A stretch of 64,000 nt of DNA from Obrimoposthia wandeli (Eukaryota): contig CDROCS010000960.1 in the NCBI GenBank assembly GCA_977020255.1, forward strand, positions 558,001 to 622,000, given 5' to 3'. Below the pieces are notes generated by a model that saw only the letters and a list, made by a program, of their open reading frames with translations, made no database searches and was not told where the DNA came from. Made by a program: the position numbers and the translations under genes. Within the stretch, counting starts at the first letter, position 1. Each line of letters begins with the position of its first letter. Below are positions 1,319-50,781 of this stretch, one piece after another.

Positions 1319-2100
1319 AGTAGGTAGAAGGATGGAGTCTAGATCACTTGACCCCCCTAAAGGGTGTCACTCCATAAGGGTGTTTTACCTCACCTCTGGT
1401 GAGGCAACATATACCCTTATGGTGTGGCAAGACACCTTTTATGGTGTGACACCCTTATGGTGTGGCACCCTTTAGGGGGAGGGGGGGTCAAGTGATCTAG
1501 ACTCCATCCTTCTTTGATATACCACTATGGTCGTCCATAGTTTAAAGGGTCAAGTGGCTTAGTCTCCACCCTTCTTTTTGAGATATACCACTATGAAAGG
1601 GTCAATTGGCTTAGTCTCCACCCATCTTTTTGTGATCTAGTCTCCACCCATCTTTTTGTGATCTAGTCTCCACCCTTCTTTTTGGTTAACCACTAATTCA
1701 AAGGATCAAGTGGCTTAGTCTCCACCCTTCTTTTTTGTGATCTAGTCCATAATGAAAATTTATGATAAAGTTCACACTTAACAATTAAGAATGTATGACG
1801 TAATCATACACACACTATTTAATGTGAAATTTATACTAAGTTCACTCTTATTAGTTAAGAATGTATTACGTAATCACACACAAACTATTCTATGTGAAAA
1901 TTTATGATAAAGTTCACTCTTATCAGTTAAGGAATGTGGTTTTTAACACACACATACACTATTTTATGTGAAATTTAAACTAAAGTTCACTCTTATAAGT
2001 TAAGAATGTATTACGTAATCACACACATACTATTCTATGTGAAAATGTAGATCAAAGTTTTTTCCCAGGCTTACACATCTAAAGAATTATGGTAAAATTT
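1319..2100 (+). repeat. Left terminal inverted repeat (terminal hairpin, 26-56-bp GGAGACTA repeats, about 70-bp TTACGTAA repeats)
   Basis: Reverse complement of about 12690-13731; homology ends near CCCAGGCTTACACATCTAAAGAATTATG. Confidence 0.93.
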
Positions 2101-2152
2101 ATTTAAATAACATAAATTATATATTAAAATAAAATATCCTTAATAAATATAT

Positions 2153-2605
2153 TTATATACAATTTACATAATCAATACATAGAGAAAAACATTTCAAATA
2201 AGCACAATGTTTTCCGTGTTTTCTAAACGGACATCGAATATTTTTTGGCATTTTCTTTAAATTTTTGAAACTTTTATTATAATTCACAATTCTCAAATTT
2301 GGAAACATTCGTTTCACTAAATTAATTTTCTTTCCATCAATAGAATCCATAACATAGAATATTGTTTCAACATCATCAATATGAATATCAGAGCTTTCAC
2401 CTTCAAACCAGGATAACTGATGATGATGATTTATCAAATATAGATTTTTTCTTTTAACTGTAAATGATAAACTACTCCATGGTATTTGATTTTTAAACAC
2501 GTAATGAAATGGACAAGTCATATCATTCACATACATTATACATAATTCCTTTGGAATATATTCTCCATTATTATCAATAAAACATTCTAAATCAATAAAA
2601 GCCAT
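2153..2605 (-). CDS. Small DEDD/DnaQ-like nuclease-fold accessory protein (150 aa)
   Basis: N-terminal AFIDLECF...PKELCI resembles ExoI motif DxE; Cys/His-rich C-terminus CPFRKHGKHCAYLKC. Confidence 0.55.
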   Translation of the reverse strand: MAFIDLECFIDNNGEYIPKELCIMYVNDMTCPFHYVFKNQIPWSSLSFTVKRKNLYLINHHHQLSWFEGESSDIHIDDVETIFYVMDSIDGKKINLVKRMFPNLRIVNYNKSFKNLKKMPKNIRCPFRKHGKHCAYLKCFSLCIDYVNCI

Positions 2606-2659
2606 TTGAAAATAAAATAAAATGAAATACTAAAATGATATATTTGTTTATACTTAAAA

Positions 2660-3035
2660 TTATTTGTGTTGAAGTTTCAACCATAAAAGACTCAGAGGTC
2701 CGCAGTTTTTAGTTAATGGATTCTGACATTTAACTCGATTATAGTAGACTGGAATGTTTTCTTTTCAAGTGTAGACACCAACTTTGCAGGATAATAGAAT
2801 CCAAAAGGATCAAACACTCGAATCTCGAATCTGTCAACGAATATTGCTATCCAATGCTCGCCTGGTAGATTTGAAGTATGAGTATTGATAATGTAACCTC
2901 CGGGTTTTAATGATGGAATTTTATCCAATGAATATACTCCATTAAATTTGTTATTCAATAATATTTTTCCGGATTTATGAATTTCTAAAGTACTAATTTA
3001 AATAAAGAATATAATATACAATAAACTTACTTCAT
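2660..3035 (-). CDS. Adenain-like (C5 family) maturation protease; intron 2993-3030 and 1-nt frameshift at 2757-2760
   Basis: Spliced read MNTLEIHKSGKILLNNKFNGVY...PGEHWIAIF...FDPFG; after a shift in an A run reads YYNRVKCQNPLTKNCGPLSLLWLKLQHK*; His, Asp, Gln and Cys catalytic residues present. Confidence 0.88.
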
Positions 3036-4252
3036 ACAATCACAGTTTTATTTTTCGTAATCTGAATTTCGGAATCAAATATTCCGTAAATCAAAACACT
3101 TGTTGGAACGGTCAAAGGAGAATTAAATCTAATTTCAAGTCTTAAATTACCAGTTTTAGGCACTTGAGTAGTGTTTATATCAAAATCTGGTGCTAATAGA
3201 AAAGTGAAAATCGAACTTCCTGATTTAAAATCAGAAAATCTGATACCATTATTCACGTTTTTATCTAAAATATTCATATTTCGAATAATTGACTGCATAT
3301 ATGCTAATGAAAAATTGTTATTATCTAGATTATAAGTTTCTCGATAATCTGTATTTCTAGCTAATGATATTGTTGAAATATTAAATGTATTGAACGTAGA
3401 AGATTTAACTTTGTATTCCTTACCACCCTGAGGTGTATCTTTGAAAGCAATCAAAATGAACTTGGGTAAACGATAGTCTCCGAATATTTGATCTTTATTA
3501 AGTTCCAAAGAACCCTGAGGAATTGAATATGTTACTAACTGAGTTTTTCTAATTGGGTAAACTGCATTCTGACTTTGCAAACCTAACTGATGTCCAATCA
3601 TTACTGAAGAATCAACTTTTACTCTTCTAACATACAATCTAGCATCTAGAATTTGAATAATTGGTTTTGAAGTTTCTGAATAGAGCGAAAAATTATGCTG
3701 ATTTCTCATAAATCTCAAATGAACATTAATCCCTGGAATCAAATATTTTGATTGATCAAAGAAATCTAATCTAATTGAATTACACAATGAAAATATTTTA
3801 GATTCACTAATCCATTGTTTACGATTTTCTGCATCATCATCATACCCACTACATTCAAGGTTAGTATACTTGGTATCACTACTAAAATTCAAAAGAGTAT
3901 CGAATATAGCCTTATGAGTATACGTTCCATTTCCTCCTTCAACCTTTACATTATTAAGTGTTAGAATAACATCTCTAAACAAAGTTTGAAACATGTAATT
4001 CTCTGGAGTTACATCGCTATCTTTCATTAAATCAGTACCATCTTCATTTACAACTTTTAATTTAATATTTAACAAAGTATCATTCAAATCCAGATAATCT
4101 TCTTCAGATGCATGAATATTAAATTCTATGTCATTTAAATTTTTTCCAGTAATTGAATTGATTGGAAATATTTCTTCAAAACTTGAATTTTCAATCACTA
4201 CTTGAGGTAGTGGTCTATCGAAAATACACAATTCAGATTTTATACTAGTCAT
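3032..4252 (-). CDS. Polinton major capsid protein (double jelly-roll, PY/hexon-like), 406 aa
   Basis: KSELCIF...DIEFNI...DYLDLNDT...KYLIPGINVHLRFMRN...GNLRLEIRF motifs; position in capsid module. Confidence 0.9.
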   Translation of the reverse strand: MTSIKSELCIFDRPLPQVVIENSSFEEIFPINSITGKNLNDIEFNIHASEEDYLDLNDTLLNIKLKVVNEDGTDLMKDSDVTPENYMFQTLFRDVILTLNNVKVEGGNGTYTHKAIFDTLLNFSSDTKYTNLECSGYDDDAENRKQWISESKIFSLCNSIRLDFFDQSKYLIPGINVHLRFMRNQHNFSLYSETSKPIIQILDARLYVRRVKVDSSVMIGHQLGLQSQNAVYPIRKTQLVTYSIPQGSLELNKDQIFGDYRLPKFILIAFKDTPQGGKEYKVKSSTFNTFNISTISLARNTDYRETYNLDNNNFSLAYMQSIIRNMNILDKNVNNGIRFSDFKSGSSIFTFLLAPDFDINTTQVPKTGNLRLEIRFNSPLTVPTSVLIYGIFDSEIQITKNKTVIV

Positions 4253-4648
4253 TTTGGAAAATAGTACCTTTAAGACGTTTGTTTATACTATTTAAATTAT
4301 TTCTTTTACGTTTAAGACCCTTTCCATTTTGTTCAACACAATTTGCGACTTTATTTAAACTCTCAACAGCATTATTTTTTAATTTTGGAATCAAAGTTTT
4401 GACTTCTTTGATTGTATTTTCTTTGAGAGATGAAATTATGTTTTTGGATTTGTTAACGCAGTTCCTACCGTTTCACCAATTACATTGGCAGCACTTGTAG
4501 CTGCTGATAAACCAACTTTTTTTAACAATGGAATAGCTAATCTAGAAATAGTTTGATACCAACCAGATCCATATTGTTTACCAATGAAATAGGGAAGTTC
4601 ACCGCCCTGTTGACTTTTGCTAAAAAATTTTATAATTGATGTATTCAT
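4245..4648 (-). CDS. Small basic/amphipathic virion protein (cupiennin-like gene of adintoviruses), frameshifted at 4441-4445
   Basis: QQGGELPYFIGKQYGSGWYQTISRLAIPLLKK; adding one A to the A5 run continues NIISSLKE...GKGLKRKR...TIFQND*, overlapping the MCP ATG. Confidence 0.7.
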
Positions 4649-4695
4649 TTTATATATATATATATATATTTATATTTTAAATATATTTATATTGT

Positions 4696-5709
4696 TTATA
4701 CTTTACGTAAATGAAGAGTTAAACTAGTTTTTGCTCCATATGAAAATGGAATTAAATTACCAGAATCATCACGTATATTTACCTCGATTCTATTAATACT
4801 TGAATCTCTCATTTTCAAGTACATTGGATTATCAATTTTAACATTTACTACATCTCCATATCGATATTTTAATGATTTTAACCAAATAGACTTTAACAGT
4901 GGAACATAATCAGATCCTACTAAGACAGAATCTGTTAAACTAGTATAAATATACATTTGATTATATGAGCTAGAAAGTGTTGGTTTTTGAAAACCTTTAA
5001 TTCGTTTCTCAAAGAAAACATTATTAAAACCTAATAAAGATGCAAGTTTTTCATCAAATAAAACTGATTTTACATTTTTCTTTAATAAAATATCAAATAA
5101 TCCGTCTGAATCTATATTACAGCTTTTAAAAATTTCATTACATTTACTGGCTATAATATTACATAATGAAGAACTATCTTGTATCAAATAATTTTGATTA
5201 AATTTTATTTCGTATTCATATTCAGCTAAATAATAAATTGTAATTCTCATTTTAGCATGAATATTTTTATTTATGTCAACAATTTCATCACTTGTTATAA
5301 CATGACTAGAAATTTTTTGTATTTCATTAATACCTATAATTTTTGATTCTTCTAAAGTTTCGAATTTTAACAACATTCGATGAATACTGTTAATTGTACT
5401 TATTTCTAATTTTTGACCCTTTGTAATTTTGAAATTGAAAACAGTATTTAAATTATTAAAAATTAATCCATTTAAAATTGCAAAAGATACATCGAAAGTT
5501 TTCATTTCTATCTTTTCCGTTTTATAAAGTATTTTTGAATTAGTTTGTATTGTTAAAGGAGTAAAATTAAATACAAATTCAGTCAAGGCAACCTCCCATT
5601 CACCATCTAAATTTAGAGAGTTTTCCCAATCTACAGTAAATTGATTGGCTGTATTGTTAGGTTGAGTACTTGGACAACTATTACTAGGTAAAATAATATA
5701 TTTTGACAT
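4696..5709 (-). CDS. Polinton minor capsid protein (penton, PX), 337 aa
   Basis: IILPSNS...NNTANQF...LDGEWEVALTEF N-terminus and VPLLK...NPMY...IEVNIRDDSG...TSLTLHLRK C-terminus. Confidence 0.88.
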   Translation of the reverse strand: MSKYIILPSNSCPSTQPNNTANQFTVDWENSLNLDGEWEVALTEFVFNFTPLTIQTNSKILYKTEKIEMKTFDVSFAILNGLIFNNLNTVFNFKITKGQKLEISTINSIHRMLLKFETLEESKIIGINEIQKISSHVITSDEIVDINKNIHAKMRITIYYLAEYEYEIKFNQNYLIQDSSSLCNIIASKCNEIFKSCNIDSDGLFDILLKKNVKSVLFDEKLASLLGFNNVFFEKRIKGFQKPTLSSSYNQMYIYTSLTDSVLVGSDYVPLLKSIWLKSLKYRYGDVVNVKIDNPMYLKMRDSSINRIEVNIRDDSGNLIPFSYGAKTSLTLHLRKV

Positions 5710-6735
5710 TATTCAATTTGAGAAGCAAATATCCAAGAAGGTTCAGAGTATCCGTGCCACTTTACGTAATATTGTTTATTCTTACCACGACCTTTAGTTT
5801 CTAAAATTTCTTGTATTCGATATAGTTTAGGTTTATCAATTAATTGTAACTCTTGTTTATAAAATTTTCCTTTGATGATGACGTTATCAATATCTTTTAA
5901 AATATACATTATTGGATTTTGTTTATAATTAATATCATGAATTTGAAAAACCTCATCACTCCAATTTTGATTAAAATTTTTAATAAATGGACTTGTACTT
6001 ATTTTTGATATTCGAACATAATCATCAATTTTATATTTAGATTTAAGTTTCTTTTCTTTTTAGATTTTGTTTCAACAAAATATCAAATTCATTTTTATTA
6101 TTTACATCTACAGGTTTTAAACCATCTAAACCTCTATGTTTAGAATTATTATAAGCATAAATAATTTTTGGTAATACATTCACCCATTTCTTATTACCTT
6201 GTTTAGTAAAATATTTCTTTAACCGTTCTCTTAACGTTCTATTAAATCTTTCAACTACTGCAGCTTTATATTGAGAATATACTGAATAATGATTGATATT
6301 TTCAGTTTTAAATAATTTCTTAACATGTGAATTAAAAAATTCTTTACCTTCATCGGTTTGGATATTTACTGGTACATCATCAACAATTAAAGATTCTATT
6401 GCATGTAATAAATCAATACCTGATTTTGATTTAACACCAACTGCTTTTGCAAAACGACTAAATACATCAATACAAGTTAAAATATACTTGAATCCATTAT
6501 TTACTGAAGAATAAGGAATCATTTCCATTAAATCCATCTGCCATAACGAATTAATACCATTAGTTTTATATGATCTAGTAGGGAATTTACGTCTTAAAGG
6601 TTTATTCAGACTATATGATAATTCATTTCTTAACCATTTTTGTGTGTTTGTTTTTGATTGTTTGACTCTTTTTGTCAATTTTTCTAACCCTGTATAACCG
6701 TCTGGATCTTCTGGATTGTTCCAAATCTTTTCCAT
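5709..6735 (-). CDS. int: Retroviral-like DDE integrase with C-terminal chromodomain, frameshifted at 6057-6061
   Basis: WQMDLMEM, CIDVFSRFA, IQTDEGKEF, VVERFNRTLRE; removing one A gives KKLKSKYKIDDYVRISK...WSDEVF running into YYVKWHGYSEPSWI. Confidence 0.93.
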
Positions 6736-6897
6736 TGCAGCATGAAGAATTAAAATTTATAAATAAGTTAGACAACTTTGTATTGTTTATCCCCATTATT
6801 ATAAAAGTTAAATATATTTTTTAATCTGTTTATATGTTTGTATAAAACGAATGAATGTAATTATTTAATATTATTATAATTTTCGTTATTAAGACAA

Positions 6898-7311
6898 CTA
6901 TCCCCATCTTGAAGATATAACACTAGCTATTACTGATGCTATAGCGGGCAGTAGGGCCAATATGAATCCGCTATTTTGATTATAAATAATGTTTCTTTTA
7001 TTAATTTTACCACGTGAATTTGCTAAATTTATTAATGAATTTTTATATTTTAAAATATTATCATCAGGTTTAATTTTACCATAAATTATTTTATTTAAAA
7101 TTTTTATTAAATCATCAACTACATAAATTGGAAATGATTTCAACATTTTCATTTTATTCGTTTTTGGTACGTCAATTAAGGTTTTAAAATAAGGTAAACT
7201 TTTTGAAAATTCAATATTATTACGATCATATAATACAGTATTTATTAATTTTTTAACTTCATCTTTATCTGTCCTTTTACTATGTTTAAGAATACTCTTT
7301 TTAAAATTCAT
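6898..7311 (-). CDS. Basic protein with hydrophobic C-tail resembling adenovirus pX precursor tail (137 aa)
   Basis: Lys-rich body ending QNSGFILALLPAIASVIASVISS; directly downstream of ATPase. Confidence 0.5.
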   Translation of the reverse strand: MNFKKSILKHSKRTDKDEVKKLINTVLYDRNNIEFSKSLPYFKTLIDVPKTNKMKMLKSFPIYVVDDLIKILNKIIYGKIKPDDNILKYKNSLINLANSRGKINKRNIIYNQNSGFILALLPAIASVIASVISSRWG

Positions 7312-7312
7312 T

Positions 7313-7922
7313 TTATTTTAAAACATTATTATTATTTATTTGTTTATAGACTGTAATACCATTACGGTTAAATATATCAGTAACAATTCTTAAATCATCA
7401 GGACATGATTGAGTAAAATTTAAAAATAAATAACCATGTGGTAAAGATGTAGCATCATGAAACGCATCAATTAAATAACTCTTGTTATGAGGAAATGCTT
7501 GACGAGCAATAAAATCTATCACTGTTTGATCTCTAGGATTTTTGAATAAAATCAAATAATGTACATTAAGATTACGAGTGCGATGATTTCCTCCTTGATG
7601 AAATAAATTTTGGGTTATAAAAATTACAGTAACTTCTCTATGTCTTGCAATTTTTGTAAATAAATCATTAAAATCAGATTCTTTGTTAGCCTCTTGATAT
7701 AAGTCATCAATAACAATTACATCACCTTTTAATCTTAATGTTTTTTATTTTATTAAATTCTTGGTTTGTTAAACCAGCTTCTCCATCACCACCTTGATGC
7801 CAATATATTTTATTAAATTTATTTTTAAACATTTTTGAATTTAATAATTTACAAACAAATAAAGTTTTTCCACTACCACTTGGTCCTACTACTTGAAAAG
7901 TTGAATTGTTTGTTAATAACAT
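7313..7922 (-). CDS. FtsK/A32-like packaging ATPase, frame broken near 7725-7735
   Basis: Walker A GPSGSGKT; in the second frame Walker B VIVIDDL, RHREVTVIFITQNLF and LFKNPRD. Confidence 0.9.
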
Positions 7923-8003
7923 TATATATAAATATTAATATAAAATAAATATATCAGAATAAGTACATGTTTATAACAATAACAACATTTTATTAAATAT
8001 TTA

Positions 8004-8390
8004 TTAAACATCAAAATATTCAGTCGCTGTATGAATCCTCCAGATGAGAGTTGTTTCATTCTGTTTATTTATTTTATATCCGAGAATTTTTATTTCGAGC
8101 ATCCAACTTCTTCCATCTTCTTGAATATCCGAAATCTTTGTTCCACCACAATCATAAAATTTACACTTATCTCCGCGCATAAATATACCCTCATTCTCAA
8201 GTTCAACATCAATTTTCAAATATTTGACGATTTCATTGAATTGTTGAATGTCTTTGTCATCAAAATCAGAGACTCGGTAATTGTACAAAGTTTTCGATAA
8301 TGTCACTGGCATAGTCATTGGTTGAATCCATGCAGATGCCAAGAAGAACATATCATACTCGTAATACTTTTGAACGGATTTATAAGACAT
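8004..8390 (-). CDS. Hypothetical Polinton protein (128 aa)
   Basis: Intact ATG-started ORF co-oriented between TBP-like and ATPase genes; no family recognised. Confidence 0.65.
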   Translation of the reverse strand: MSYKSVQKYYEYDMFFLASAWIQPMTMPVTLSKTLYNYRVSDFDDKDIQQFNEIVKYLKIDVELENEGIFMRGDKCKFYDCGGTKISDIQEDGRSWMLEIKILGYKINKQNETTLIWRIHTATEYFDV

Positions 8391-8405
8391 TTAAAATTGA
8401 ATGAT

Positions 8406-8870
8406 TTAATTAGAAATTGTTTCGTATTTATATAATTTATTTTTAATGTATAACATGATATCGTTAACTTGATTTTGAAAATCTAAATTTCTAAGACCTA
8501 AAATTACGACCTTTCCAGATGTGAAAATATTTACACACAATGGATTGAAAATATTTAATCTTAAGCCTGGGAAAACCTCAGGGTCAAATGAACATGCATT
8601 ACGTAATACATTCGATAATTTAAATAGATTGATACTTTGTTCTAAATTTTCACATATCGTAATTGATTGAATACCAAGTATATTTATTCTTAAAGGGTAA
8701 GAAATATTTTTAATAGGTACCTTACATCCCATAATCCTGCATTTCTTATTTCTAAAAATAAGTATTGTATAATCTTTGGCTTTATAAACGTATTGTTCTG
8801 GTCGTGTTCGAAATTTTAATTTGGATACATCATCTAAGCAAATTCCTTTATAATTAATATTTGTTAACAT
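8406..8870 (-). CDS. Divergent TATA-binding protein (TBP)-like protein, about 154 aa from ATG at 8870
   Basis: Two TBP repeats: TILIFRNKKCRIMGCK and SFDPEVFPGLRL...VNIFTSGKVVILGLR, compared with canonical TALIFSSGKMVCTGAK and YEPELFPGL...LIFVSGKVVLTGAK. Confidence 0.85.
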   Translation of the reverse strand: MLTNINYKGICLDDVSKLKFRTRPEQYVYKAKDYTILIFRNKKCRIMGCKVPIKNISYPLRINILGIQSITICENLEQSINLFKLSNVLRNACSFDPEVFPGLRLNIFNPLCVNIFTSGKVVILGLRNLDFQNQVNDIMLYIKNKLYKYETISN

Positions 8871-8977
8871 TGTAAGTAAAATAATTAAATTATTGTATTT
8901 ATATATATATTTTTTTTTATTCAGTCTACAAATCAACCAATATCCAATCAGTCAAATCAAATCAATCATATCATCAG

Positions 8978-11900
8978 ATGAGTATATGTAAAACTTATTC
9001 AAATATTTGTTTTTCGGATACACATTTTAATCCTCAAGAATGTCATGATATAATGAAAAAATATTATGGTTATTCATACAAAAAGATAAATTATTTCATA
9101 TGTCCACAATGTTTAAGCACTGAAAATGTTGATTACAACTTATTTTATAGTCGACATGTTAGTCATTTAAAAGCATATGAAAATGTTAGTAAGAAAAAAT
9201 TATTTAAAGTACCGGCTTTAAGCAAAAGAACTGATATAATTAATGTACCATCAAACATAGTAATTTCAGCTCCTACAATTACGTCACGAAAACGTAAAAT
9301 AAATGATAATATACATATTAAAACATCATTAGAAAATAGTTATTCAATGATATCCATGAAAGTAGATCATCTCAATCTTGTAAGTCTTAAGGTTCCAGTT
9401 TCATTATTAAACGAACTAGAAAGAATAGTGCAATTAATGGGAAAAGCAAAGATACAATACATCATTAGAATGAGGTTTGAAAAGAATGATGGAGAAACTA
9501 AAGAATTGTATGCTTCGCATCGAGCAATGATTTTTTCACATGCTATAATTTCAGAAATGGAAGATACAATGGAAAATAAAGTTGAAGAATATTCAGAAAA
9601 AGGTAGTGGTTGGAAATTGATGAATATACTTGAATATGCATTTATTGTTACTAAATATAGTCAAATTTGTGCATTGTCAGGTCATTCATATATTAAATCA
9701 CCAAATTATCTTACAAAATCTAAAGCAGTCGTCAATATTCAAAACTCTGATAATCTTTGCTTTATTTATGCAATATTGTCAATACTTAAATATAATGAAA
9801 TAAAAATAAATAGAAATAGACCAAGCCAATATGAAAGATTTTTAAATGATTTTGTATATAATTCCGAAGACATGCCTATGAAAATATCAAATATATCAAA
9901 ATTTGAACGGCAAAATCCTGGTATAATAATAAATGTATTCATATTCAACGAGATAAGTGAAAAAGAATCAAAAACTGATGTTATCAAGAATCCTTATATT
10001 GATATTGCATACAAATCAAAAATAAAGGAAGGAACTATAGTTAATTTATTGTTACTAGAATCCAAGGAACGGTTTCATTATATAGGAATAAGTTGTCTTA
10101 ACCGGCTATTAAATATTCGAACTGGAACGACTAGAATTAGCAGAAAATGGTGTGAAAAGTGTTTACATGGTTTCAAAACCGATTTGTCATTAGAAAAGCA
10201 TAAAGTTTTATGTGACTATAATCAAGAAAGCACTACAATGTATACTATGCCTAAGAATAAGTACGTTAAATTCAATGATTGGTCAAAAACTATATCACCG
10301 AAATATGTCGTTTACGCTGATTTTGAATCTGTATTAGTACCAGATGAGAGTTATCATCAAAAGCATATGCCTGTCGCATCTGGCATGTTATTTATGAGTA
10401 CAGATGAAATTGAAACCCAGTATCAATATAATGTTGGTGATGACTGCATAGTTAAGTTTCTTCAGTCAATAGAGAACTTGGCTAAAGAAAAGGTTTTACC
10501 ATGGTATTTAGATGCTCTTAAAAACGTAATGATTCCCTTAATAAATGCAGAGATTCATACATTTAGCAATGCCAATGAATGTTATTTATGTCACGAATCA
10601 TCTGAAAAATATGTTAAAGATCATGATCACTTTACTGGTAAATATCTAGGTCCTGCATGCAATGAATGTAATTTATCAAGAAAACTTCGTCCAACTTTAC
10701 CTATTGTGTTTCATAATCTCAGAGGTTATGATTTACATCATATTTTAAAACATGCATTGAATAAATTTACTGACTGGGATATAAATATTATACCACAATC
10801 AACGGAAAAGTTTCAAGCCATGATTGTAAGATTAGGTCAAATAACTCTGAGATTTATAGATTCTTTGCAATTTTTGCAATCATCTTTGGAAAATTTAGCC
10901 GGTAAATTACCAACTATTCCATTAACAAGATCAGTTTTTCCATCTAAACTTATTGATGGCAAAGGAATATTCCCATATGATTTTGCTACATCATTAAATG
11001 TCCTCCAGAATAAGTTAAGTTTACCAGTAAAATGGAATGATAAAATCACAGACACTGAATATCAAAAAGCACAAGATGTTTGGAAAATAACCAATTGTAG
11101 AAATATGTTGGATTATATGTTAGTTTACTTAAAGACTGACGTATATTTATTAGCTGACGTATTTCAAACATTCAGAAGAAAAGCTCTCAGTGAAGATGGT
11201 TTAGAACCACTTAACTTTTTAGCATTCCTGGGTTGAGTTGGGCAAGTGCTCTAAAAATGTTAAAACATAAGGTTGAACTGATGCAGGATCCTGAAATGTA
11301 CAACATGATTTATTCGGGTATACGAGGAGGAATGACATTTGTCAATAAGCATCATGTAGTCGCTGATGAAGAAACAAGTCTTTTATATATAGATGTTAAT
11401 AATTTATATGGATGGGCTCTTGATCAACCTTTACCAAAAGGAGATTTTGAATGGATTCTTGATTATATAAAATTAAACGAAATATTGCATGAAATGAAAA
11501 ATGTGAACATGGAACATATTGAATATGGTTATTTTATGGAAGTAGACTTGGTAATACCAGAAAACCTTCATGACTTTTTAGATGATCTTCCTATAGCTCC
11601 AGAAAAGAAATGTCCACCTGGTAAAAAAGTTGAAAAACTTTTAATGACACATTCGCCAAAAAGTCATTATGTTATTCATTGGAGACTATTGCAGATGTAT
11701 GTTAGTTTAGGAGCAGTGGTAACAATTATTCATCGAGCAGTAAAATTCTCTCAGGCTAAGATATTCGCAGAATATATAGAATATAATTCAGAAATGAGAT
11801 CACAAGCAACGAATAAATGTGACAAAGATTTTTATAAACTTAAAAATGTTAGTTTGTATGGAAAGACTGTTGAAAATGTTAAGAAACGATTGAATCTTCG

Positions 11901-12618
11901 CATCTGCACTAGTTCTACAAAATTAATCACATATACTAGCAAACCTATGTTTCAACGATCAATTGAAATTCATGATAATTTAATAGCTGTTTTATTAAGA
12001 AAAGATTTTATTTGTCTCGATCGACCAAATTATATAGGCCAAGCTGTACTAGACCTTAGCAAATTACGAATGTATACTCTTCAGTATCATGATTTGCAAA
12101 TATATCGTAATTTATTCAATTGTTCAATTAATATAGTTGCCGGTGATACCGATTCATTCTTTTTGGAATGTAAAAACGTTAATTTAAGAAAACAGTTGTT
12201 ACCAAAAATGATTGCAGATGGATTATTAGATACGTCAAATTATAATGTGAATGATCCATTATATTCTAATAAATTTAATAGTAAAATAGGTTTATTTAAA
12301 GATGAATCGGAAGGAAGAATGTATAAAGAATGGATTTTCTTACTTTGTAAATGTTATTCACTTAAGTTTGAAGATGACTTTGAAAATAATAAAGCAAAAG
12401 GAGTAAATCTTAAGGGTTCAACGGTTGTACATCAAACATATTTAGACGTGTATGAAAACGGTATTGCATATAATATACCTCAAAAGAAGTTTGGAACAAT
12501 AAATCATCAACTATACACAATCATAATACAAAAGACTGCTCTCAGCTCATCAGATGACAAGCGCTATTGGATCGAGAAAAATAGAAGCCGCGCTTATGGA
12601 CATTATGAAATCACATAA
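8978..12618 (+). CDS. polB: Protein-primed family B DNA polymerase with embedded endonuclease VII-like insert, 1-nt frameshift at 11216-11220
   Basis: YADFES, FHNLRGYDLH, DVYLLADVF, YIDVNNLYG, KLKNVSLYGKT, AGDTDS; DHDHFTGKYLGPACNECN insert; T6 instead of T5 restores NFFSIPGLSW. Confidence 0.96.
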
Positions 12619-12689
12619 TAAATGTGTTTAATTTTGTATTATTCTCTGACTTCTTTCTTATTTATTTTTGATTTAATTTTTGATTTAAT

Positions 12690-13731
12690 ACAAATTTTAA
12701 CATAATTCTTTAGATGTGTAAGCCTGGGAAAAAACTTTGATCTAAATTTTCACATAGAATAGTATGTGTGTGATTACGTAATACATTCTTAACTTATAAG
12801 AGTGAACTTTAGTTTAAATTTCACATAAAATAGTGTATGTGTGTGTTAAAAACCACATTCCTTAACTGATAAGAGTGAACTTTATCATAAATTTTCACAT
12901 AGAATAGTTTGTGTGTGATTACGTAATACATTCTTAACTAATAAGAGTGAACTTAGTATAAATTTCACATTAAATAGTGTGTGTATGATTACGTCATACA
13001 TTCTTAATTGTTAAGTGTGAACTTTATCATAAATTTTCATTATGGACTAGATCACAAAAAAGAAGGGTGGAGACTAAGCCACTTGATCCTTTGAATTAGT
13101 GGTTAGCCAAAAAGAAGGGTGGAGACTAGATCACTAAAAGATGGGTGGAGACTAGATCACAAAAAGAACGGTGGAACCTAGATCACAAAAAGATGGGTGG
13201 AGACTAAGCCAATTGATCCTTTGAATTAGTGGTTAACCAAAAAGAAGGGTGGAGACTAGATCACAAAAAGATGGGTGGAGACTAGATCACAAAAAGATGG
13301 GTGGAGACTAAGCCAATTGACCCTTTCATAGTGGTATATCTCAAAAAGAAGGGTGGAGACTAAGCCACTTAACCCTTTCATAGTGGTATATCTCAAAAAG
13401 AAGGATGGAGACTAAGCCACTTGACCCTTTCATAGTGGTATATCTCAAAAAGAAGGGTGGAGACTAAGCCACTTGACCCTTTCATAGTGGTATATCTCAA
13501 AAAGAAGGGTGGAGACTAAGCCACTTGACCCTTTAAACTATGGACGACCATAGTAGTATATCAAGGAAGGATGGAGTCTAAGCCACTTGACCCCCCCTCC
13601 CCTCCCCCTAAAGGGTGTCACTCCATAAGGGTGTCACACCATAAAAGGTGTCTTGCCACACCATAAGGGTATATGTTGCCTCACCAGAGGTGTACATGTC
13701 AAGTGGCTTAGACTCCATCCTTCTACCTACT
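12690..13731 (-). repeat. Right terminal inverted repeat (longer than left through extra subterminal repeat units)
   Basis: Reverse complement of 1319-2100 with additional GAAGGGTGGAGACTAAGCCACTTGACCCTTTCATAGTGGTATATCTC units. Confidence 0.93.
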
Positions 13732-22059: not shown

Positions 22060-24570
22060 ATGGCTGACCTAAGAAAATATCTAAGCATCAAAGAAGATGC
22101 AACGCTCGTCGGAGATGAAGAAAACGGGTGTTCTCGATCTGCTCCCAAATGTCAGACGATCGATAATTACAGATTGGAGAAAGCTCTAGACATGTTTGAT
22201 AAAACGAAGAAAAAAGTTGTCATAGAAAAGATTCTTAAGGTTTCCAGAAACAATCAGAACTATTTTATGAAGATATATCGTGATCATGCAAACATAGTTC
22301 CTCAGAATGTTCGAGTTATCAAACTCATCAATGACCCAAGCATCACTCCGAGATTGATTGAGCATTTCCCTGAAGGTAACGACTACGTTGTGGTCCTGGA
22401 GTTCCTGGACAGTCCTTGGTTGGACTATTTTGATTATACAGAAGAATACAAACCAGAAGCCGTAGTGAAGCGACACATTCTGAGAATCTTGGAGATTTCC
22501 GAGCATCTCTTTACTCTCGGATTGTACAATATTTTTTTCGACCTCGAAAAAATCATGATCAACCCGAAAACTGAAGAAATCAGATTTACCATCTTTAGCT
22601 TTTACATTATTGACACAATTTCTCAGGATCCAGTTTCTAATACTCGATTGGGCTTTTCAGATACTTACTCCAGTCCCCAGCGGTGTCGAAGAGAAACCTT
22701 CAACGTCAAGGCCAATATGGTCTTCATGTTTGGAACTGTTTTGTTTTCCATATTTGAGCTTAAAGATTTGTTTCAATCACCTGAAGAGATAATGAACTCT
22801 TACCATGTTCAATTTAATCGTTGTTCTTTCAGAGTACAATCACTAATCAAAAAGTGTGTCACAGGGAATGAATCAGATAGAATCATATACGAAGATATAA
22901 AGAACGATTCGTGGTTCTTTGAAAATAATAAGGATGCCAATTACAAAGCAGTTTCATTCTGTAAATCGAGCGAGAAATATGAAGTTCTGCAAATAATAGT
23001 TGATAATATAAGAGCAAAGGTTATGAAGATGTCTTTGAACAACAAAGTCTATTTTCTAAAAGTATTTCTTAAACGTGAGCCAATTGTGCCAGCTGAGGTC
23101 CAAGTTATCGAACTCATCAATGACACAAGTATCACCCCGATATTGATCGAGCACTTCCCAGAAGGAGAAACCTACATTGTGGTTACTGAATTCTTGGACA
23201 GTCCATGGATGAGCTATAGAGACTTTACCAGAAACTATAGGCCTGAAAATATGGTGAAGCGACATATGCTGAAAATCTTGGAGATCACAGAGCACTTGTT
23301 CACTCTCGGTCTCTATAACGTCGACTACAAACCCTGGAATGTTATGATCAATTCTGAGACCGAAGAAATAAGATTTATCGACTTTGATGATTATATTTTT
23401 GACGATATGTCACAGGATCCGATTTCTGGTTCTCTTTGTGGCACGACATTACTTTCAAGTCCCCAGTGGTGTTTGGAGCAGACCTACAATGTAAAAGCCA
23501 ACATGGTCTTCACATTCGGAGCGGTTTTGTATCATATATCAGAGCTAAAATATGCATTTAATAATTCCGAACAGATTATTAACAAACAAGACATTCGATT
23601 TTATAATTCCTCACTCAAACTCCAAACGTTAATAAGAAAATGTATATTCAAAGAAGAATCCAAAAGAATCAAATACGAAGATATCAAGAATGATCCGTGG
23701 TTTGATGATGAGAATCAAGAATCTTTAGAAAATTCACTTGTCGAAAATAAACATTGCAATTTAAGCTCGAAATATCAAGAGCTAGAAACATTATATGTGA
23801 ATAAGAAAACAAAAGTTGTCATAGTTTCTTTGAAAAATGAGTTGTGTCTGAAGAAGGTATTTCATAATAGTGCATATACAATTCCAGAAGAAGTTCAAGT
23901 CATGGAGCTTATCAACGACACAAACATCACCCTTAGATTGATTGAGCACTTCCCTGAAGGTAGCGACTATGTCGTTATCACGGAGATCCTGGACAGTCCA
24001 TGGATGACGTATTTCGAATATTCATCAGAATTCGTATCCGAGGAAGACTTAAAGCGACATATTCTGAGAATGCTAGAGATTACCGAGCATTTGTTCACGC
24101 TCGGATTGTACAACATGGGCTTCAGCTCCGAGAATATCTTGATCAACTCCGAGACTGAAGAAATAAGATTTCTTGAATTTGACTGTTATTTGTTCGACGC
24201 AGTGTCCCACATTCCTGTATCAAAGGTTAGGTTGGGAACAGAAATATTTTTCAGTCCGCAAATGTGCAGAAAAGAAGTCTACAGTGTGAAAGCCAATATG
24301 GTATTCACGTTTGGAGCAGCTTTATTCTCTATTTTGGAGCAAGGGACCAATTCATCGTCAACACCTTTAGAAATTATTGAAAACTTCAAAGTACCATTCG
24401 TTATGTCTTCTCACAAAGCTGAAAATCTGATTAGAAGATGTCTCGCCAAGGAAGAGTCAGAGAGAATCAAATACGAAGATATAAAAAAGGATCCCTGGTT
24501 CTCTACTATCTGTGAATCAACTAGTTCATCTGAAATAGACAGAATCAGTGACATTTTAAAGAAATTGTAA
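22060..24570 (+). CDS. Intronless protein with three tandem Ser/Thr kinase-like domains (836 aa from ATG 22060)
   Basis: Three repeats of LIND..IT..LIEHFPEG...EFLDSPW...EIRF...SPQ...KANMVF.FG...RI.YEDIK.D.WF; the middle domain has DYKPWN and DFD. Confidence 0.9.
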   Translation: MADLRKYLSIKEDATLVGDEENGCSRSAPKCQTIDNYRLEKALDMFDKTKKKVVIEKILKVSRNNQNYFMKIYRDHANIVPQNVRVIKLINDPSITPRLIEHFPEGNDYVVVLEFLDSPWLDYFDYTEEYKPEAVVKRHILRILEISEHLFTLGLYNIFFDLEKIMINPKTEEIRFTIFSFYIIDTISQDPVSNTRLGFSDTYSSPQRCRRETFNVKANMVFMFGTVLFSIFELKDLFQSPEEIMNSYHVQFNRCSFRVQSLIKKCVTGNESDRIIYEDIKNDSWFFENNKDANYKAVSFCKSSEKYEVLQIIVDNIRAKVMKMSLNNKVYFLKVFLKREPIVPAEVQVIELINDTSITPILIEHFPEGETYIVVTEFLDSPWMSYRDFTRNYRPENMVKRHMLKILEITEHLFTLGLYNVDYKPWNVMINSETEEIRFIDFDDYIFDDMSQDPISGSLCGTTLLSSPQWCLEQTYNVKANMVFTFGAVLYHISELKYAFNNSEQIINKQDIRFYNSSLKLQTLIRKCIFKEESKRIKYEDIKNDPWFDDENQESLENSLVENKHCNLSSKYQELETLYVNKKTKVVIVSLKNELCLKKVFHNSAYTIPEEVQVMELINDTNITLRLIEHFPEGSDYVVITEILDSPWMTYFEYSSEFVSEEDLKRHILRMLEITEHLFTLGLYNMGFSSENILINSETEEIRFLEFDCYLFDAVSHIPVSKVRLGTEIFFSPQMCRKEVYSVKANMVFTFGAALFSILEQGTNSSSTPLEIIENFKVPFVMSSHKAENLIRRCLAKEESERIKYEDIKKDPWFSTICESTSSSEIDRISDILKKL

Positions 24571-25413
24571 TCAACTGAAGAATTTATTAAATGTTTTAAC
24601 AATTTTTTTTTGTGAAATATTCTTTTTTCTTTCATTACTTGCTTGTAATTTTTAGTATATTATTTTACCATTTATGACTGAAGGGTAAATTTATATCACA
24701 GATTTCTTTTAGTATTTTAAAATTTACGTTTTTGTTGAAAAGCAATTTGATTTTAAAAATGTTTGCTCCCTATTTTAAACTAATTATTTTAAAATATATT
24801 TATACATTTATAAACTTATCTATTTGTTAATTCGAATTAAAATTATTGAAATTATTAATTATTATTTAAGTATTAAGTATTTCTTGATAAAAATTATCGG
24901 TATGCGTATAGATCAACCAATTTATCTTCCAGTTGCTATCTTTTCTATAAACAATATTGAAGTAAATATTAGAGATGATTCCGGACAACTAATAGATTTC
25001 ATGTAGGGAGCCAAGACAAGTTTAACAATACATTTAAGAAAACAAAATGGCGAATCCAGCAATAATTGAAGCTTATAGTCAAAGCCAACAAGGTGGAGAA
25101 TTACCATATTTTGTTGATAAACAATATGGATCTGGCTGGTTTAGAACATTAGGTATTTGCCTTTCCTCTTTTAAAGAGACTCGGGCGATTTGTATCAAAA
25201 TTAGGAAAGGACTACCTTTCATCTGATAACAATAAACTAATACAAACTTTTAAGAAGCATGCCCTAAATGAACTTGATAATGTTTTACCTGACGTTGTTA
25301 ATTTGATTAGAAAAGGTAAATCAAATAAAAGCTAAGAAGGTAGTGGATTTAAACGTAAAAAGAAGCAAAATTTAATATAAACATAAGAAAGTTGAAGGAA
25401 CAATTTTTGTAAA

Positions 25414-26635
25414 ATGAGTTGCTCCAAAACCGAAATGTGTAATTTTGATAAACCACAACTAGTGGAAGATAATGCTTCCTTTGAAGAAAAATTTCTAGTT
25501 AACTCAGTTTCAGGAACCACTTTAACCGATTTAGAATTTAATATTAATGGTTCCAATAGCGAGTATTTAGATTTGAATGAAACTCTGCTTTATGTTCAAA
25601 TAAAAGTATTAAATCGAGATAGTACTAATTTAGAGGAAAATGCCGATGTAACATCTTTAAATTATCTATTTAATTCTTTATTTAGTGATGCCATTGTTAC
25701 TCTTAATAATGTCAAAATTGAAGGTGGAAATTCTTTCTATGCTCATAAAGCTTTGATTGGAATTCTATTGAATTATAGTACTGATAATCAAAATACTAAT
25801 TTAGCAACCAATGGTTATGATAAAATGGCTGCAACTCGCCAAGAATGGATTGCAAAATCTAAAGTTTACGAAATGTGTGGGTCTATGAGATTAAATTTCT
25901 TTGAACAACCGAAATATTTAATTCCCGGTGTTAATGTACATCTTCGTTTGAAAGGTAATAAATATAATTTTTCTTTGATAAGCACAGACGTTCTAAAACC
26001 TAGACTTGATATTTTGGATGCAAAATTATATGTTCGAAGAGTGAAAACCGAGCAATCAGTTTTAATGGCACATAATATAGGAATGGAAAAAACGATGCTT
26101 GTTATCCTATAAGATAAACTAAACTTATAACCTACTCTTTAGGTACGGATACACAAGCTTTTAATAAGGATCAAATTTTGGTGATATAAAATTACCGAAA
26201 TTTGTTTTAATATCTTTTCAAAAAACTGCAAAGTATCTAGGAAATTATACGACAGATGTAACTCAAATTGCTAATCTTAATGTAGGTTCAGTGACACTTT
26301 CAAGAAATACCGATTATCGTGAAACATATAAAACAGATTTTGAAGGTAATGCTTATGCTTTGGCTTATACGCAATCTATTATTCGGAATTTGGGCCAACT
26401 AGATAAAAATATAAACAATGGTATTTCTTTCACTGAGTTTAAAAGCAGCTGCCCCTTCTTCACATTTGTTTTGGTACCAGACTTTGATATAAACCAATGC
26501 CAACTACCAAATGATGGAAATTTACGACTAGAAATTAAGTTCAATGCAGCTTTAACACATCCTACTACGGTGCTTATTTACGGAGTGTTTGATTCCGAAA
26601 TACAAATCAATAAAAACATAACTGTCATATTATAG
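25414..26635 (+). pseudogene. Polinton major capsid protein pseudogene
   Basis: ORFs 25414-26112 and 26291-26635 align with the 3032-4252 MCP (YLDLNET, KYLIPGVNVHLR, GNLRLEIKF). Confidence 0.9.
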
Positions 26636-26636
26636 A

Positions 26637-26938
26637 ATGAAGTAAGACATTTTTTAAATTTATATTTAATTATTTTTATTTAGTTAGTACAAGTACAAGA
26701 ATCAGCAAAGAAGGTCCTGGGTGATAAATTCAATGGAGTTTATCCAATTGATATGATCCCATTTTTTCAATCTGGAGGTTAAATAATCAATACTCATACT
26801 TCGAATTTACCGGTAGAACATTGGATAGCTATTTATGTTAGAGAGTGGACAATACATGTATTTGATCCACTTGCAACGTGTTATACACACAAGTTTGTTT
26901 CAACTGTTTAGAAAAGTCTAAGAAGAGTATTTTACAAC
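26637..26938 (+). pseudogene. Polinton protease pseudogene retaining the ATG-AA / intron start
   Basis: ATGAA then GTAAGA...TTAG, then KFNGVY...G*IINTHTSNLPVEHWIAI...FDPL; truncated before the catalytic Cys. Confidence 0.75.
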
Positions 26939-27339
26939 AAGTAAATATTACAAATATTTTGATGATCATTGGAGTGATGAAGTATTTGAAATTTCAAAAA
27001 TCAATTTGCATGCTAACCCCGTAATGTATAATATCATAGATGAGAATAAATGTCCAACAGAGGGAAATTTTTTTGAGCAAGAATTATAAGTTATTGATAA
27101 ACCAAAAGTATATAGGATCCAAGGAATCATTAAATCTAATGGTCGAGGTAAGAATAAACAATATTACGTAAAGTGGCATGGATATAAAACACCAACATAA
27201 ATGAAAGCGAACCATATAGAGTTAAACATTCCTATATTGTATTACCACCTTATATTTGTTTAAACATTCAACTTAAAATACAAGGCAAATATATTATAAC
27301 AAACAAAATAAAGTAATTCAGTTAATGTATAAGCTTTTT

Positions 27340-35199: not shown

Positions 35200-36255
35200 T
35201 TATATGCATAAGTATTCAGATAACTTACTTTCTTGCTTTATCTCGACCAAAATCAATTGTAGATGTGCAAAACTATGATTCATTATGTTTTTAATGCTAT
35301 TCTCACAGTTTAAAAGGGTATTGTAATAATTAAGCATCGTTATCGTGTTTTATAATTTTCCCATATTTAATTTTTTCAAGTACGAGCCCAGTCAAATACC
35401 GCTGAAACTTACAGTTTTGCCTACATTTACAAAGCAAAATAAACTTTGATAAATTTATTTACTTTTAATATTGATTATGATTTTCAATGTAATGATGAGG
35501 ATACACATTAATTCATAATCCCTCGGTTGAAAGCATTCAATTTTGATAATACAAAAAGACAACACATTTCATTACATGCGAGTGATGAACTTAGATCGTT
35601 TATTGCATCTCGATTTTGATGAAATTCCAACAAGAAATGCTTACATGGTTTTAGGAAGCAGAATGCATATGATAAACATATTCAAATGTATTCATTAAGC
35701 TAACAAGGAGAATCAATTTACAAAATGATTTAAAAGCGTTTTTCAAAGTGATGACTTGTCAAAATATTTTGCTGCAAAGTTTTTAGTATATGCTGATTTT
35801 GAGTCATTGCTAGCACCGTATTATTTATATAAGCATATTCATTTTTGTTTAAAACACCAGCCATATGATAAACATATTCAAATGTATTCATTAAGCTAAC
35901 AAGGAGAATCAATTTACAAAATGATTTAAAAGCGTTTTTCAAAGTGATGACTTGTCAAAATATTTTGCTGCAAAGTTTTTAGTATATGCTGATTTTGAGT
36001 CATTGCTAGCACCGTATTATTTATATAAGCATATTCATTTTTGTTTAAAACACCAGCCATATGATAAACATATTCAAATGTATTCATTAAGCTAACAAGG
36101 AGAATCAATTTACAAAATGATTTAAAAGCGTTTTTCAAAGTGATGACTTGTCAAAATATTTTGCTGCAAAGTTTTTAGTATATGCTGATTTTGAGTCATT
36201 GCTAGCACCGTATTATTTATATAAGCATATTCATTTTTGTTTAAAACACCAGCCA
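35200..36255 (+). pseudogene. Degenerate Polinton polB fragment
   Basis: KSIVDVQNYDSLCF, FHYMRVMNLDRLL, KKCLHGF, FLVYADFESLLAP and KHQP match the N-half of the 8978 polymerase. Confidence 0.8.
35666..36253 (+). repeat. Exact 196-bp tandem triplication
   Basis: Units start at 35666, 35862 and 36058 (CATATGATAAACATATTC...AAAACACCAGC). Confidence 0.95.
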
Positions 36256-36425
36256 AGTAGGTGCTTTGATGGAGTCTAGACCACTGGGGGGGGTCCCCTG
36301 TGTGCGCACACCAAGTTAAAGGGTGTCACACCATAAGGGTGTCACACCATAGAAATGTCACACCATAGCGTGTCACACCATAAGGGTATATGTTGCCTCA
36401 CCCTAGGGGTGTCTTGCCACACCAT

Positions 36426-37019
36426 AAGGGTCTGGCTCAGAAAGGTTATGAAGGTTTGAAGGTATGGTCGTGACCGTCTATGGTCGGCCAACATACCCAA
36501 GGGGTTGTGGTCATCCATAGGTCAAAGGGTCTGGCTCAGAAAGGTTATGAAGGTTTGAAGGTATGGTCGTGACCGTCTATGGTCGGCCAACATACCCAAG
36601 GGGTTGTGGTCGTCCATAGATCAAAGGGTCGGGGTCAGTTTTGACTTGAAACTTTGAAGGTATAATTAAGGTCAACTATGGTTGGCCGTCACATCTAAAG
36701 GGTTGTGGTCGTCCATAGGTCAAAGGGTCGGACTCAGTTTTGACTTGAAACTTTGAAGGTATAATTAAGGTCAACTATGGTTGGCCGTCACATCTAAAGG
36801 GTTGTGGTCGTCCATAGGTCAAAGGGTCGGGGTCAGTTTTGACTTGAAACTTTGAAGGTATAATTAAGGTCAACTATGGTTGGCCGTCACATCTAAAGGG
36901 TCATGGACGTCCATAAATCAAAGGGTCAAGGTCAGTTTTGACTTGAAACTTTGAAGGTATAATTAAGGTCAACTATGGTTGGCCATCACATCTAAAGGGT
37001 TGTGGTCGTCCATAGGTGA
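36426..37019 (+). repeat. About 99-bp subterminal minisatellite, 6 units
   Basis: AAGGGTC-initiated units at about 36426, 36523, 36623, 36722, 36821 and 36920. Confidence 0.85.
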
Positions 37020-39399: not shown

Positions 39400-40330
39400 T
39401 ATGAAGGCAAATACTAGTAAGAGCCTTAGCAAGTGAATGTAATTGAAAAAATAAGAGTGTCGAGAGTTTGATTGAATGCAAGTGTAATTTAGACTATAAG
39501 TAAATTAAAATAGAGTTTTCGTTGAATAAATTATAGTTAGATTGAATGCAAGTATGAATGTAAGTGAATGCTAGTATGAATTTCAATACAAGTAAGTGTC
39601 TTAGCAAGTGAATGTAATTTAAAAATAAGAGTGTCAATAGTTTGATTGAATTCGAGTGTAAGTTAGACTATAAGTAAATTAAAATAGAGTTTTCGTTGAA
39701 TAAATTATAGTTAGATTGAATGTAAATGAATGCAAGTATGAATTCAAGTGAATGCAAATACAAGCAAGAGTCTTAGCAAGTGAATGTAATTGAAAAAAAT
39801 AAAAATAAGAGTATCGATAGTTTGATTGAATGCGAGTGTAATTTAGACTATAAGTAAATTAAAATAGAGTTTTCGTATGAATAAAGTTATGTTAAGTTAC
39901 AGTAAATTAATAACAAGTAAGCAACTATAAGAAGCAGTGATATTGAAGTATGTTAAAAATTAGAACGACTAAGTTATGGCAAGATTAATAGAAAACAACA
40001 CTAAATTTGACAGTATGAATGAAAATTAGTAAAATATTAATGTATTTGAATGTATTTGAATGATAGTTTGAATAAATTACTGTTAGATTGAATGTAAATG
40101 AATGCAAGTATGATTGAATGCAGGGTCAAGTACAAGTAAGAAAGAATACGCAATATGCAAGTACGAATGTCAATTATGAATGAAAATTAGTAAATATATT
40201 AATGAATTTGAATGCTAGTTTAAATATATGAGAGTTAGAATGAATGTAAGTGAATGCAAGTATGAATGTAAGTGAATGCAAATATGAATACAAATACAAG
40301 TAAGAATCTTTGCAAGTGAATCTTAAACTG
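39400..40330 (+). repeat. GAATGCAAGT-type degenerate satellite with about 174-bp higher-order units (mirrored at about 43990-44950)
   Basis: AGCAAGTGAATGTAATT recurs at about 39428, 39602 and 39775. Confidence 0.8.
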
Positions 40331-50760: not shown

Positions 50761-50781
50761 ACAAACAACTTCTTGACAATA

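Follow-up and report, generated by a model that had tools for sequence, protein, structure and literature searches.

Why does a Polinton/Maverick element carry a gene for a TATA-binding-protein (TBP) homologue, and what would the encoded protein read? The question is raised by an open reading frame in the window (the whole stretch of 64,000 nt of Obrimoposthia wandeli DNA analysed here), for which the original prediction proposed either an element-specific promoter factor or a decoy. It bears on whether animal Polintons make particles, and on how their genes are timed in elements without an RNA polymerase of their own. The reading favoured here, and held to be probable, is that the protein (vTBP) would serve as the element's own late transcription factor reading the word TATAAACA, with early expression from host TBP.

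Terminal inverted repeats and a 6-bp target-site duplication delimit the element at 1319–13731. It encodes an rve integrase (Pfam, E 4e-10) and a DNA polymerase B whose motifs are visible in translation, the only Pfam match in the polB product being an EndoVII domain; from this EndoVII-like domain (Pfam) and the general classification of Polintons, we take the element to be of group 2. Features are listed in window coordinates.

1319..13731: Polinton/Maverick of group-2 type, bounded by terminal inverted repeats, with 6-bp target-site duplication; about 12.4 kb.
1319..2107: left terminal inverted repeat; contains 52-nt and about 72-nt subrepeats.
2153..2605, minus strand: conserved 150-aa ORF; often adjoins vTBP in relatives; no Pfam or PHROG match at E 0.001.
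2645..2652, minus strand: TATAAACA, 47 nt upstream of ORF 2153–2605.
2713..2997, minus strand: cysteine protease piece; relatives found.
3032..4252, minus strand: probable major capsid protein (MCP, 406 aa); relatives 31–63% identical, with the same gene order; no Pfam match.
3172..3179, minus strand: TATAAACA, within the 3' end of the MCP gene, about 180 nt upstream of the protease gene.
4245..4648, minus strand: small virion-module gene; broken in this copy; relatives found.
4280..4287, minus strand: TATAAACA, 35 nt upstream of the major capsid gene.
4693..4700, minus strand: TATAAACA, 52 nt upstream of the small gene preceding the MCP gene.
4696..5709, minus strand: probable minor capsid protein; conserved in all sister families; no Pfam match.
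5709..6735, minus strand: rve integrase, extended at its C terminus; frame broken in this copy.
5854..5861 and 5920..5927, minus strand: two TATAAACA sites within the 3' part of the integrase gene, at 152 and 218 nt, respectively, upstream of the minor capsid gene.
6827..6834, minus strand: TATAAACA, 99 nt upstream of the integrase start.
6898..7311, minus strand: small ORF of 137 aa, conserved, in the virion module; matches no family.
7313..7919, minus strand: packaging ATPase; Walker A motif visible; broken in this copy.
7341..7348, minus strand: TATAAACA, 37 nt upstream of ORF 6898–7311.
7968..7975, minus strand: TATAAACA, 56 nt upstream of the ATPase start.
8004..8390, minus strand: probable single-stranded DNA-binding protein (SSB; OB fold like T7 gp2.5, Enc34 and ASFV CP312R); ordinary TATA upstream.
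8406..8870, minus strand: mini-TBP (vTBP), 154 aa; repeat-1 helix H2 absent, C-terminal stirrup kept.
8898..8905, minus strand: ordinary TATA box, TATATAAA; candidate site for host TBP, 35 nt upstream of the vTBP ATG.
8978..12618, plus strand: DNA polymerase B, protein-primed, carrying an EndoVII-like domain; frame broken in this copy.
12685..13731: right terminal inverted repeat, from an inverted-repeat search.

The element thus has about 11 genes, mostly with roles other than a vTBP complex: polB on the plus strand and, on the minus strand, vTBP, SSB, ATPase, the small ORF, integrase, minor capsid, the small virion gene, major capsid, protease and the 150-aa ORF. The putative ORFs for capsid, minor capsid, protease and ATPase keep fitting size, order and motifs in relatives; Pfam matched none of them. 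The name major capsid is our assumption from size and synteny, and minor capsid from synteny; the small virion-module gene is presumably PZ-like, the protease piece presumably adenain-like (from synteny), and the 150-aa ORF may be Maelstrom/DEDD-like. Relatives of the packaging ATPase were found, one of which matches an ATPase family. The SSB product was modelled with pLDDT 90.1; its Foldseek E value was only 0.03, and the four best structural matches were SSBs from phages or viruses, or a phage protein of the DUF2815 kind (Z 6.9–7.7, rmsd 2.8–3.4, 105–122 residues). At least 150 near-identical copies are present in the same genome, all scored matches (150 of 41,560 candidates) being 98–100% identical, so the Polinton family is young and abundant. 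The genome, of 1.35 Gb, seems to be that of an animal, judging by its histone and TBP genes. Each of the terminal subrepeats of about 72 nt (1768–2059, 12733–13024) holds a palindrome of the type TTACGT-A/C-A, which we take to resemble a bZIP (CRE/PAR) site and to be a candidate host-responsive enhancer.

Further elements lie in the same window. At 36286–48329, a second element consists almost wholly of long nested inverted repeats around a 154-aa ORF (42226–42690) of no known family; it has the Polinton's roughly 72-nt subterminal repeat and is probably non-autonomous. Decayed pieces of other group-2 Polinton families (capsid, protease, integrase, ATPase, SSB, polB) were found at 24869–27221, 35238–36237, 50486–50761 and 53230–54588, with TATAAACA sites in or near them at 24946, 25376, 26410 and 50408. 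An intronless 836-aa ORF at 22060–24570 (plus strand) encodes a tandem array of three divergent kinase domains (E 7.8e-36 with Pfam Pkinase). Elsewhere in the genome, Polintons are often nested in one another, and a copy of the vTBP Polinton family lies beside or inside a group-1 element.

The identity of the 154-aa product of 8406–8870 (minus strand) was established in several ways. Pfam TBP (PF00352) matched at E 1.4e-12 (47.7 bits, curated cut-off 22.9), repeat 2 alone scoring; a PDB sequence search with E values up to 1 returned 35 distinct sequences, every one a TBP or a TBP fusion; the AlphaFold model (pLDDT 92.6, from a 17-sequence alignment) matched TBP at a Foldseek E of 1.1e-9, and was aligned with 7egb_P over both lobes (147 residues, Z 13.4, rmsd 2.5), unrelated folds reaching Z 6.8 at most. 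The two-lobed TBP saddle is confirmed as the predicted fold. A Polinton TBP homologue with two repeats, as originally proposed, is hence upheld by Pfam, by the model and by the structural match of both lobes, and the motifs had been read correctly, as judged by alignment to host TBP: the two phenylalanines of repeat 2 lie in EVFPGL and NIFTSGK, the second one of repeat 1 lies in LIF, and there is no aromatic residue at the first position of repeat 1.

Two other observations hold for this copy and do not generalize. The vTBP frame is intact here and five neighbours are broken (polB, ATPase, integrase, the small gene before MCP, protease). As a sign of selection this fails: among 30 copies chosen by ATPase DNA and judged by a direct frame test only, the frame was uninterrupted in 15 for vTBP, 15 for SSB, 17 for the small ORF and 24 for the ATPase used as anchor. 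Neighbours of similar size are equally often uninterrupted, and the intactness of vTBP in this copy is therefore put down to chance; at the polB break site, 15 of the 17 loci having both sides are uninterrupted. Similarly, vTBP stands head-to-head with polB here (107 nt between its ATG and the polB ATG at 8978, plus strand), but this is not a conserved trait, being found in 2 of roughly 5 sister families and in none of the informative metagenome contigs.

The gene is widespread. A direct search gave 16 relatives among 22 candidates (42–53% identity), a profile search 593 matches of 5,008 candidates (120 listed), and a full scan of 50% representatives 797 matches (150 listed), the latter two totals including cellular TBPs. 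Rule-based classing of 265 proteins gave 188 full-length family members, 28 two-repeat proteins of cellular type, and 49 fragments or odd sequences; one relative in the family, 219 aa long, apparently has a third TBP half-repeat. Family members were present at 15 metagenome loci, of which five are contigs with Polinton core genes (two being one element) and five more share the SSB or the 150-aa ORF, so that 10 of 15 share a neighbour with this Polinton; the other five are contigs of 1.0–1.6 kb with no visible neighbour. About five group-2 families in the same genome carry vTBP, at 43–57% identity and in differing gene orders, and all copies chosen there through their capsid gene have vTBP (7 of 7 in one set, 5 of 5 in another). 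No family member and no group-2 Polinton was found in the IMG/VR scans, and no vTBP match in phage records. vTBP is a fixed gene of this Polinton lineage, and common there.

A further account of the gene is that it was taken recently and neutrally from host TBP. A tree was built from 87 rows, 57 of them of the family (including 44 of 79 representatives), after omission of three cellular rows and of one long-branch row from IMG/VR. In it the family forms one side of a branch with SH-aLRT 99 and the host TBPs fall with cellular TBPs, so that vTBP is not nested beside host TBP; with the long-branch IMG/VR row included, that row falls inside the family. Against recent capture stand this branch, the 25% identity to host TBP, and deletions shared by 188 divergent members; against neutrality stands the comparison between families, in which pS was 0.57–0.79 and pN 0.16–0.36, far lower, in 28 of 28 pairs. 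The vTBP family is under purifying selection. In favour of such a capture, a tree joining the family with host TBPs was not rejected (AU test, p 0.174), and the copy variants within the young family are without purifying signal (in 18 copies, 15 nonsynonymous, 5 stop and 1 synonymous variant, of which indels near the 3' end may account for some). Recency and neutrality of capture are both refuted by the family, the branch and the pN to pS ratio, and the account as a whole is scarcely credible; an old capture from host TBP would be compatible with the AU result.

Introns bear on where the gene is transcribed. Two sister families have a GT–AG intron of 35–43 nt at the same repeat-1 codon, with different intron sequences (15 matches at 14 places; one further match, at an unrelated locus, was due to chance), and a third has an insertion at the same repeat-1 place with a less clear donor. 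The vTBP of the family at 8406–8870 has no intron; the size of the sister introns is similar to that of the apparent host TBP intron. To our knowledge, introns in Polinton genes are unusual. The GT–AG intron of the sister genes points to a spliced, nuclear Pol II transcript. The host TFIIB gene is likewise split over exons. Host TBP-family genes are several, including one head-to-head pair and one intronless TRF-like gene at two places; Brf-like (TFIIB-family) paralogues are also several, one of them with a group-1 Polinton inside an intron.

What the protein may bind was considered from a residue map against host TBP (hhalign probability 99.7, 25% identity), with yeast numbering counted on the host sequence from an assumed anchor. 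Residues kept are N69, F116, Q158, E186/E188, F190, P191, F207 and V213. Among the 188 family members, three phenylalanines are 99–100% conserved and the equivalent of Pro191 is 90% conserved; F99 is lost, leaving three of the four canonical intercalating phenylalanines. Helix H1 of repeat 1 is shortened and helix H2 lost, the model having no helix between residues 49 and 62; the repeat-1 linker measures 45–47 residues in 104 of 175 measured members, versus 59–62 in 20 of 23 measured cellular TBPs. Helix H2, which in canonical TBP bears a basic patch, is the surface for TFIIA, TAF1, Brf1 and Mot1. The C-terminal stirrup glutamates are Glu in 95% and 98% of the 188 members (Asp and Glu in this copy, as read from the sequence), the stirrup providing the main TFIIB contacts in the account of TBP given in PMC10005294.

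On the DNA face, residues that are themselves conserved among cellular TBPs are replaced almost invariantly in the family: V71N (88%), V122R (98%), T124M (100%), N159S (93%), V161T (82%), I194R (89%) and L205N (100%). Positions I194, V203 and L205 are those of the altered-specificity mutant TBPm3, and the N-terminal lobe of TBP reads the 3' half of the box, as described in passages of PMC1636458; the V203 equivalent in vTBP is ambiguous by one residue in the hhalign alignment. Most of the DNA-face change falls in the N-terminal lobe, and it is in the 3' half of the box that TATAAAC departs from TATAWAW. Together, the kept and changed residues predict a protein that would still meet DNA and TFIIB, reading another word. 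A protein that lacks F99 and has polar residues on its concave face might just as well bind DNA weakly or not at all, which is the case for TRF2.

The decoy role named in the original prediction, in the version considered here, would have vTBP tie up host TFIIB-type factors through its stirrup and so damp host transcription, and a kept stirrup combined with loss of the first phenylalanine and of helix H2 is what such a protein might display. A decoy needs no invariant DNA face, however, and the Asn, Arg and Met found there are 88–100% conserved; it would not account for two promoter classes (below), and an element that lacks an RNA polymerase must itself rely on initiation by host Pol II. This role is considered rather improbable.

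Promoter words were counted in 200-nt upstream windows, one copy per family, with two near-duplicate families and one edge window dropped and 200 shuffles for comparison; some sister families are related, so the windows are not fully independent. Among the 47 late-type windows, those before virion or integration genes, TATAAAC was present in 34, with one antisense occurrence (shuffles: mean 2.4, max 9), leaving 13 late windows without it; in the metagenome loci alone it was present in 11 of 13. Early-type windows had it in 4 of 26 (polB 2/3, SSB 1/7, vTBP 1/16; shuffles: mean 1.2, max 5). Conversely, the ordinary word TATAWAWR was present in 11 of 16 vTBP windows (shuffles: mean 3.0, max 8) and in 11 of 47 late windows (shuffles: 9.0). 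Two promoter classes are therefore distinguished, TATAAACA-type at late-type genes and ordinary TATA at most vTBP genes.

Distances and context qualify the count. Of 38 TATAAAC sites, 17 lie 29–56 nt from the ATG and 16 at more than 90 nt. Many fall inside upstream coding sequence, for which a codon test was weak (ATA.AAC 23 versus 17.2 expected) and the coding sites occupied two reading phases (16 and 17). One-mismatch neighbours of the word were enriched only at positions 1 (C) and 8 (G), hence the inner six bases look fixed. The element has 10 TATAAACR sites: 9 are on the coding strand and no further than 218 nt from a late-type start, and the tenth lies 195 nt before polB; over the whole 64-kb window the 20 occurrences are not above chance (mean 14.6). 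The TATAAACA signal thus lies in position and strand. Of the three TA-rich tracts originally singled out for binding assays, 4650–4690 and 7925–7945 adjoin the motifs at 4693–4700 and 7968–7975 and do not lie on them, and the third is the ordinary TATA box at 8898–8905.

The position of the motif, upstream of gene starts and on the coding strand, and the absence of all 10 TATAAACR sites from the terminal repeats also bear on whether vTBP bends DNA for replication, integration or packaging rather than acting in transcription. Adjacency of vTBP to SSB, polymerase or ATPase genes in several families would suit such a factor, as would the reported use of TBP-containing complexes by the Ty3 integrase; the kept TFIIB stirrup would not, and a DNA-bending role is accordingly regarded as distinctly improbable. 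A repressive role, in which vTBP would bind the ordinary TATA boxes of early genes and shut them off while late genes escape through the variant word, draws on the same two promoter classes, and without H2 activation could be blocked. Remodelling of the DNA face has replaced residues with which an ordinary TATA is read, and the stirrup is kept, which makes early repression very unlikely.

Controls were drawn from the same genome. In a group-1 Polinton without TBP (no TBP match in the stretches examined, one weak match falling in a nested group-2 piece), TATAAAC was present in 0 of 13 windows, from one distant family with starts placed by eye. Host histone genes had TATAAAC in 0 of 19 distinct upstream regions and TATAWAWR in 8 (30 loci, of which 3 without start and 8 duplicates). 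A third set, of hsp70 genes, was dropped as mostly bacterial-type or organellar (TATAAAC in 1 of 12, within a TA tract); multi-megabase contigs with DnaK-type hsp70 genes are probably bacterial sequence in the assembly.

Host machinery might itself read TATAAACA, whether TBP/TFIID, a TRF-like paralogue or a forkhead factor, leaving vTBP as a general booster or something else. ATAAACA, which matches the forkhead consensus, is present in 39 of 47 late windows, and the host has several TBP paralogues. No group-2 Polinton without vTBP was found, and with it no TBP-less control within the lineage, so that the motif could be a feature of group 2 that has nothing to do with vTBP. Moreover, host TBP tolerates C–G pairs in TATA variants, binding such boxes through Hoogsteen pairing, according to PMC4402545. 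Set against host reading are the strand bias of ATAAACA (39 to 1), the T that precedes it in most sites, the absence of GTAAACA, the best forkhead word, from all 47 late windows, and the absence of the word from the 19 histone upstream regions; host reading would also leave the invariant DNA-face residues of vTBP unexplained. It is thought unlikely.

The preferred reading, vTBP as late transcription factor, can be put as a series of steps. Host TBP would transcribe vTBP, SSB and probably polB from ordinary TATA boxes as early genes. vTBP would then bind TATAAACA, its remodelled N-terminal lobe fitting the C at position 7, which we take to be the position of the C–G pair in Hoogsteen boxes as well; it would prefer this word. 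The kept stirrup would bind host TFIIB and Pol II would be recruited, switching on the capsid, packaging, protease and integrase genes late, while loss of H2 would free vTBP from control of the TFIIA/TAF1/Brf1/Mot1 type. Of the original proposals, the element-specific promoter factor is thus the one favoured by the lineage-wide, strand-specific TATAAACA and the invariant DNA-face changes, its DNA binding being putative and judged from sequence. The more general statement, that a lineage of animal Polintons runs a two-step cascade with a single orthogonal TBP of 150 residues, in which TATAAACA is read by a polar saddle, host TFIIB and Pol II are recruited and host TBP regulators escaped, is given about an even chance.

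A dedicated TBP with a matching late word would give a direct handle on Polinton gene timing, comprising one small protein and one 8-base site. The family is a natural experiment on TBP, in which helix H2 and the first phenylalanine are dispensable; vTBP and TATAAACA may offer a natural altered-specificity pair of TBP and promoter, and TATAAACA would mark likely late genes in unannotated elements. If the cascade is true, vTBP would be the smallest known viral pre-initiation factor, of an origin independent of the herpesvirus mimics, and there would be evidence for a regulated late, particle-making phase in Polintons.

The anatomy of the element is that of the adintoviruses/group-2 Polintons of Starrett et al. 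2021 (PMC8502044), some of whose maps bear the labels SSDBP and MAEL. The legend of Fig. 5 there has the label 'TBP' for MELD viruses with adintovirus-like PolB, in a section on non-animal datasets; in the text examined the label is not discussed, and no family, structure or promoter word is described. It was the only trace of a Polinton TBP or of Polinton promoter words found in a search of openly accessible literature; term searches for TBP or TATA gave nothing in PMC10748475 (text and supplement) and PMC8097293 (text). The original prediction had allowed that the gene might already be reported as common: no such description was found, yet the gene is common in its lineage. The vTBP family is real and conserved, and nothing more than a label appears to have been published on it.

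Among TBPs, those of cells and archaea (PF00352; 7egb_P, 2z8u, 1mp9) have in common with vTBP a saddle of two lobes with three intercalating phenylalanines; N69, Q158 and P191 are also shared, as are both Gly-Lys turns and the C-terminal stirrup. vTBP differs from them in being about 25 residues shorter, without N-terminal extension, with H1 shrunk, H2 absent and F99 lost, and in having invariant polar residues in place of hydrophobic minor-groove ones. TRF2 keeps both H2 helices, whereas that of repeat 1 is absent in vTBP, and the host TRF-like gene groups with cellular TBPs in the tree, not with the vTBP family. TRF2/TBPL1 resembles vTBP in the loss of intercalating phenylalanine(s), and it does not read TATA (PMC10005294). 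The best BFVD fold matches of vTBP are TBP-like proteins of Nucleocytoviricota and mirusviruses (E 5e-8), with 8–20% identity, lower than to cellular TBP; few such sequences entered the trees, in one of which a long-branch IMG/VR row falls inside the family. These viruses mostly carry their own RNA polymerase.

The closest functional likeness is to the TBP mimics of beta- and gammaherpesviruses, which read TATT at late promoters. Passages of PMC6541308 describe KSHV ORF24, EBV BcRF1 and HCMV UL87 as viral TBP-like proteins used with a modified TATA word and host Pol II, as proposed here, and as large multidomain proteins with direct Pol II binding in a six-protein complex. A modified TATA word upstream of late-type genes is present in the Polintons as well (TATAAAC, 34/47); an extra Pol II-binding domain and a six-protein complex are not evident in vTBP or the Polinton gene set, and the fold match of vTBP to BcRF1 is weak (E 7.5e-4). 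In contrast to the mimics, vTBP is a bare 154-aa core with the TFIIB stirrup kept, no evident partners, and the word TATAAACA; it likely works like the herpesvirus late TBP mimics and is not one of them.
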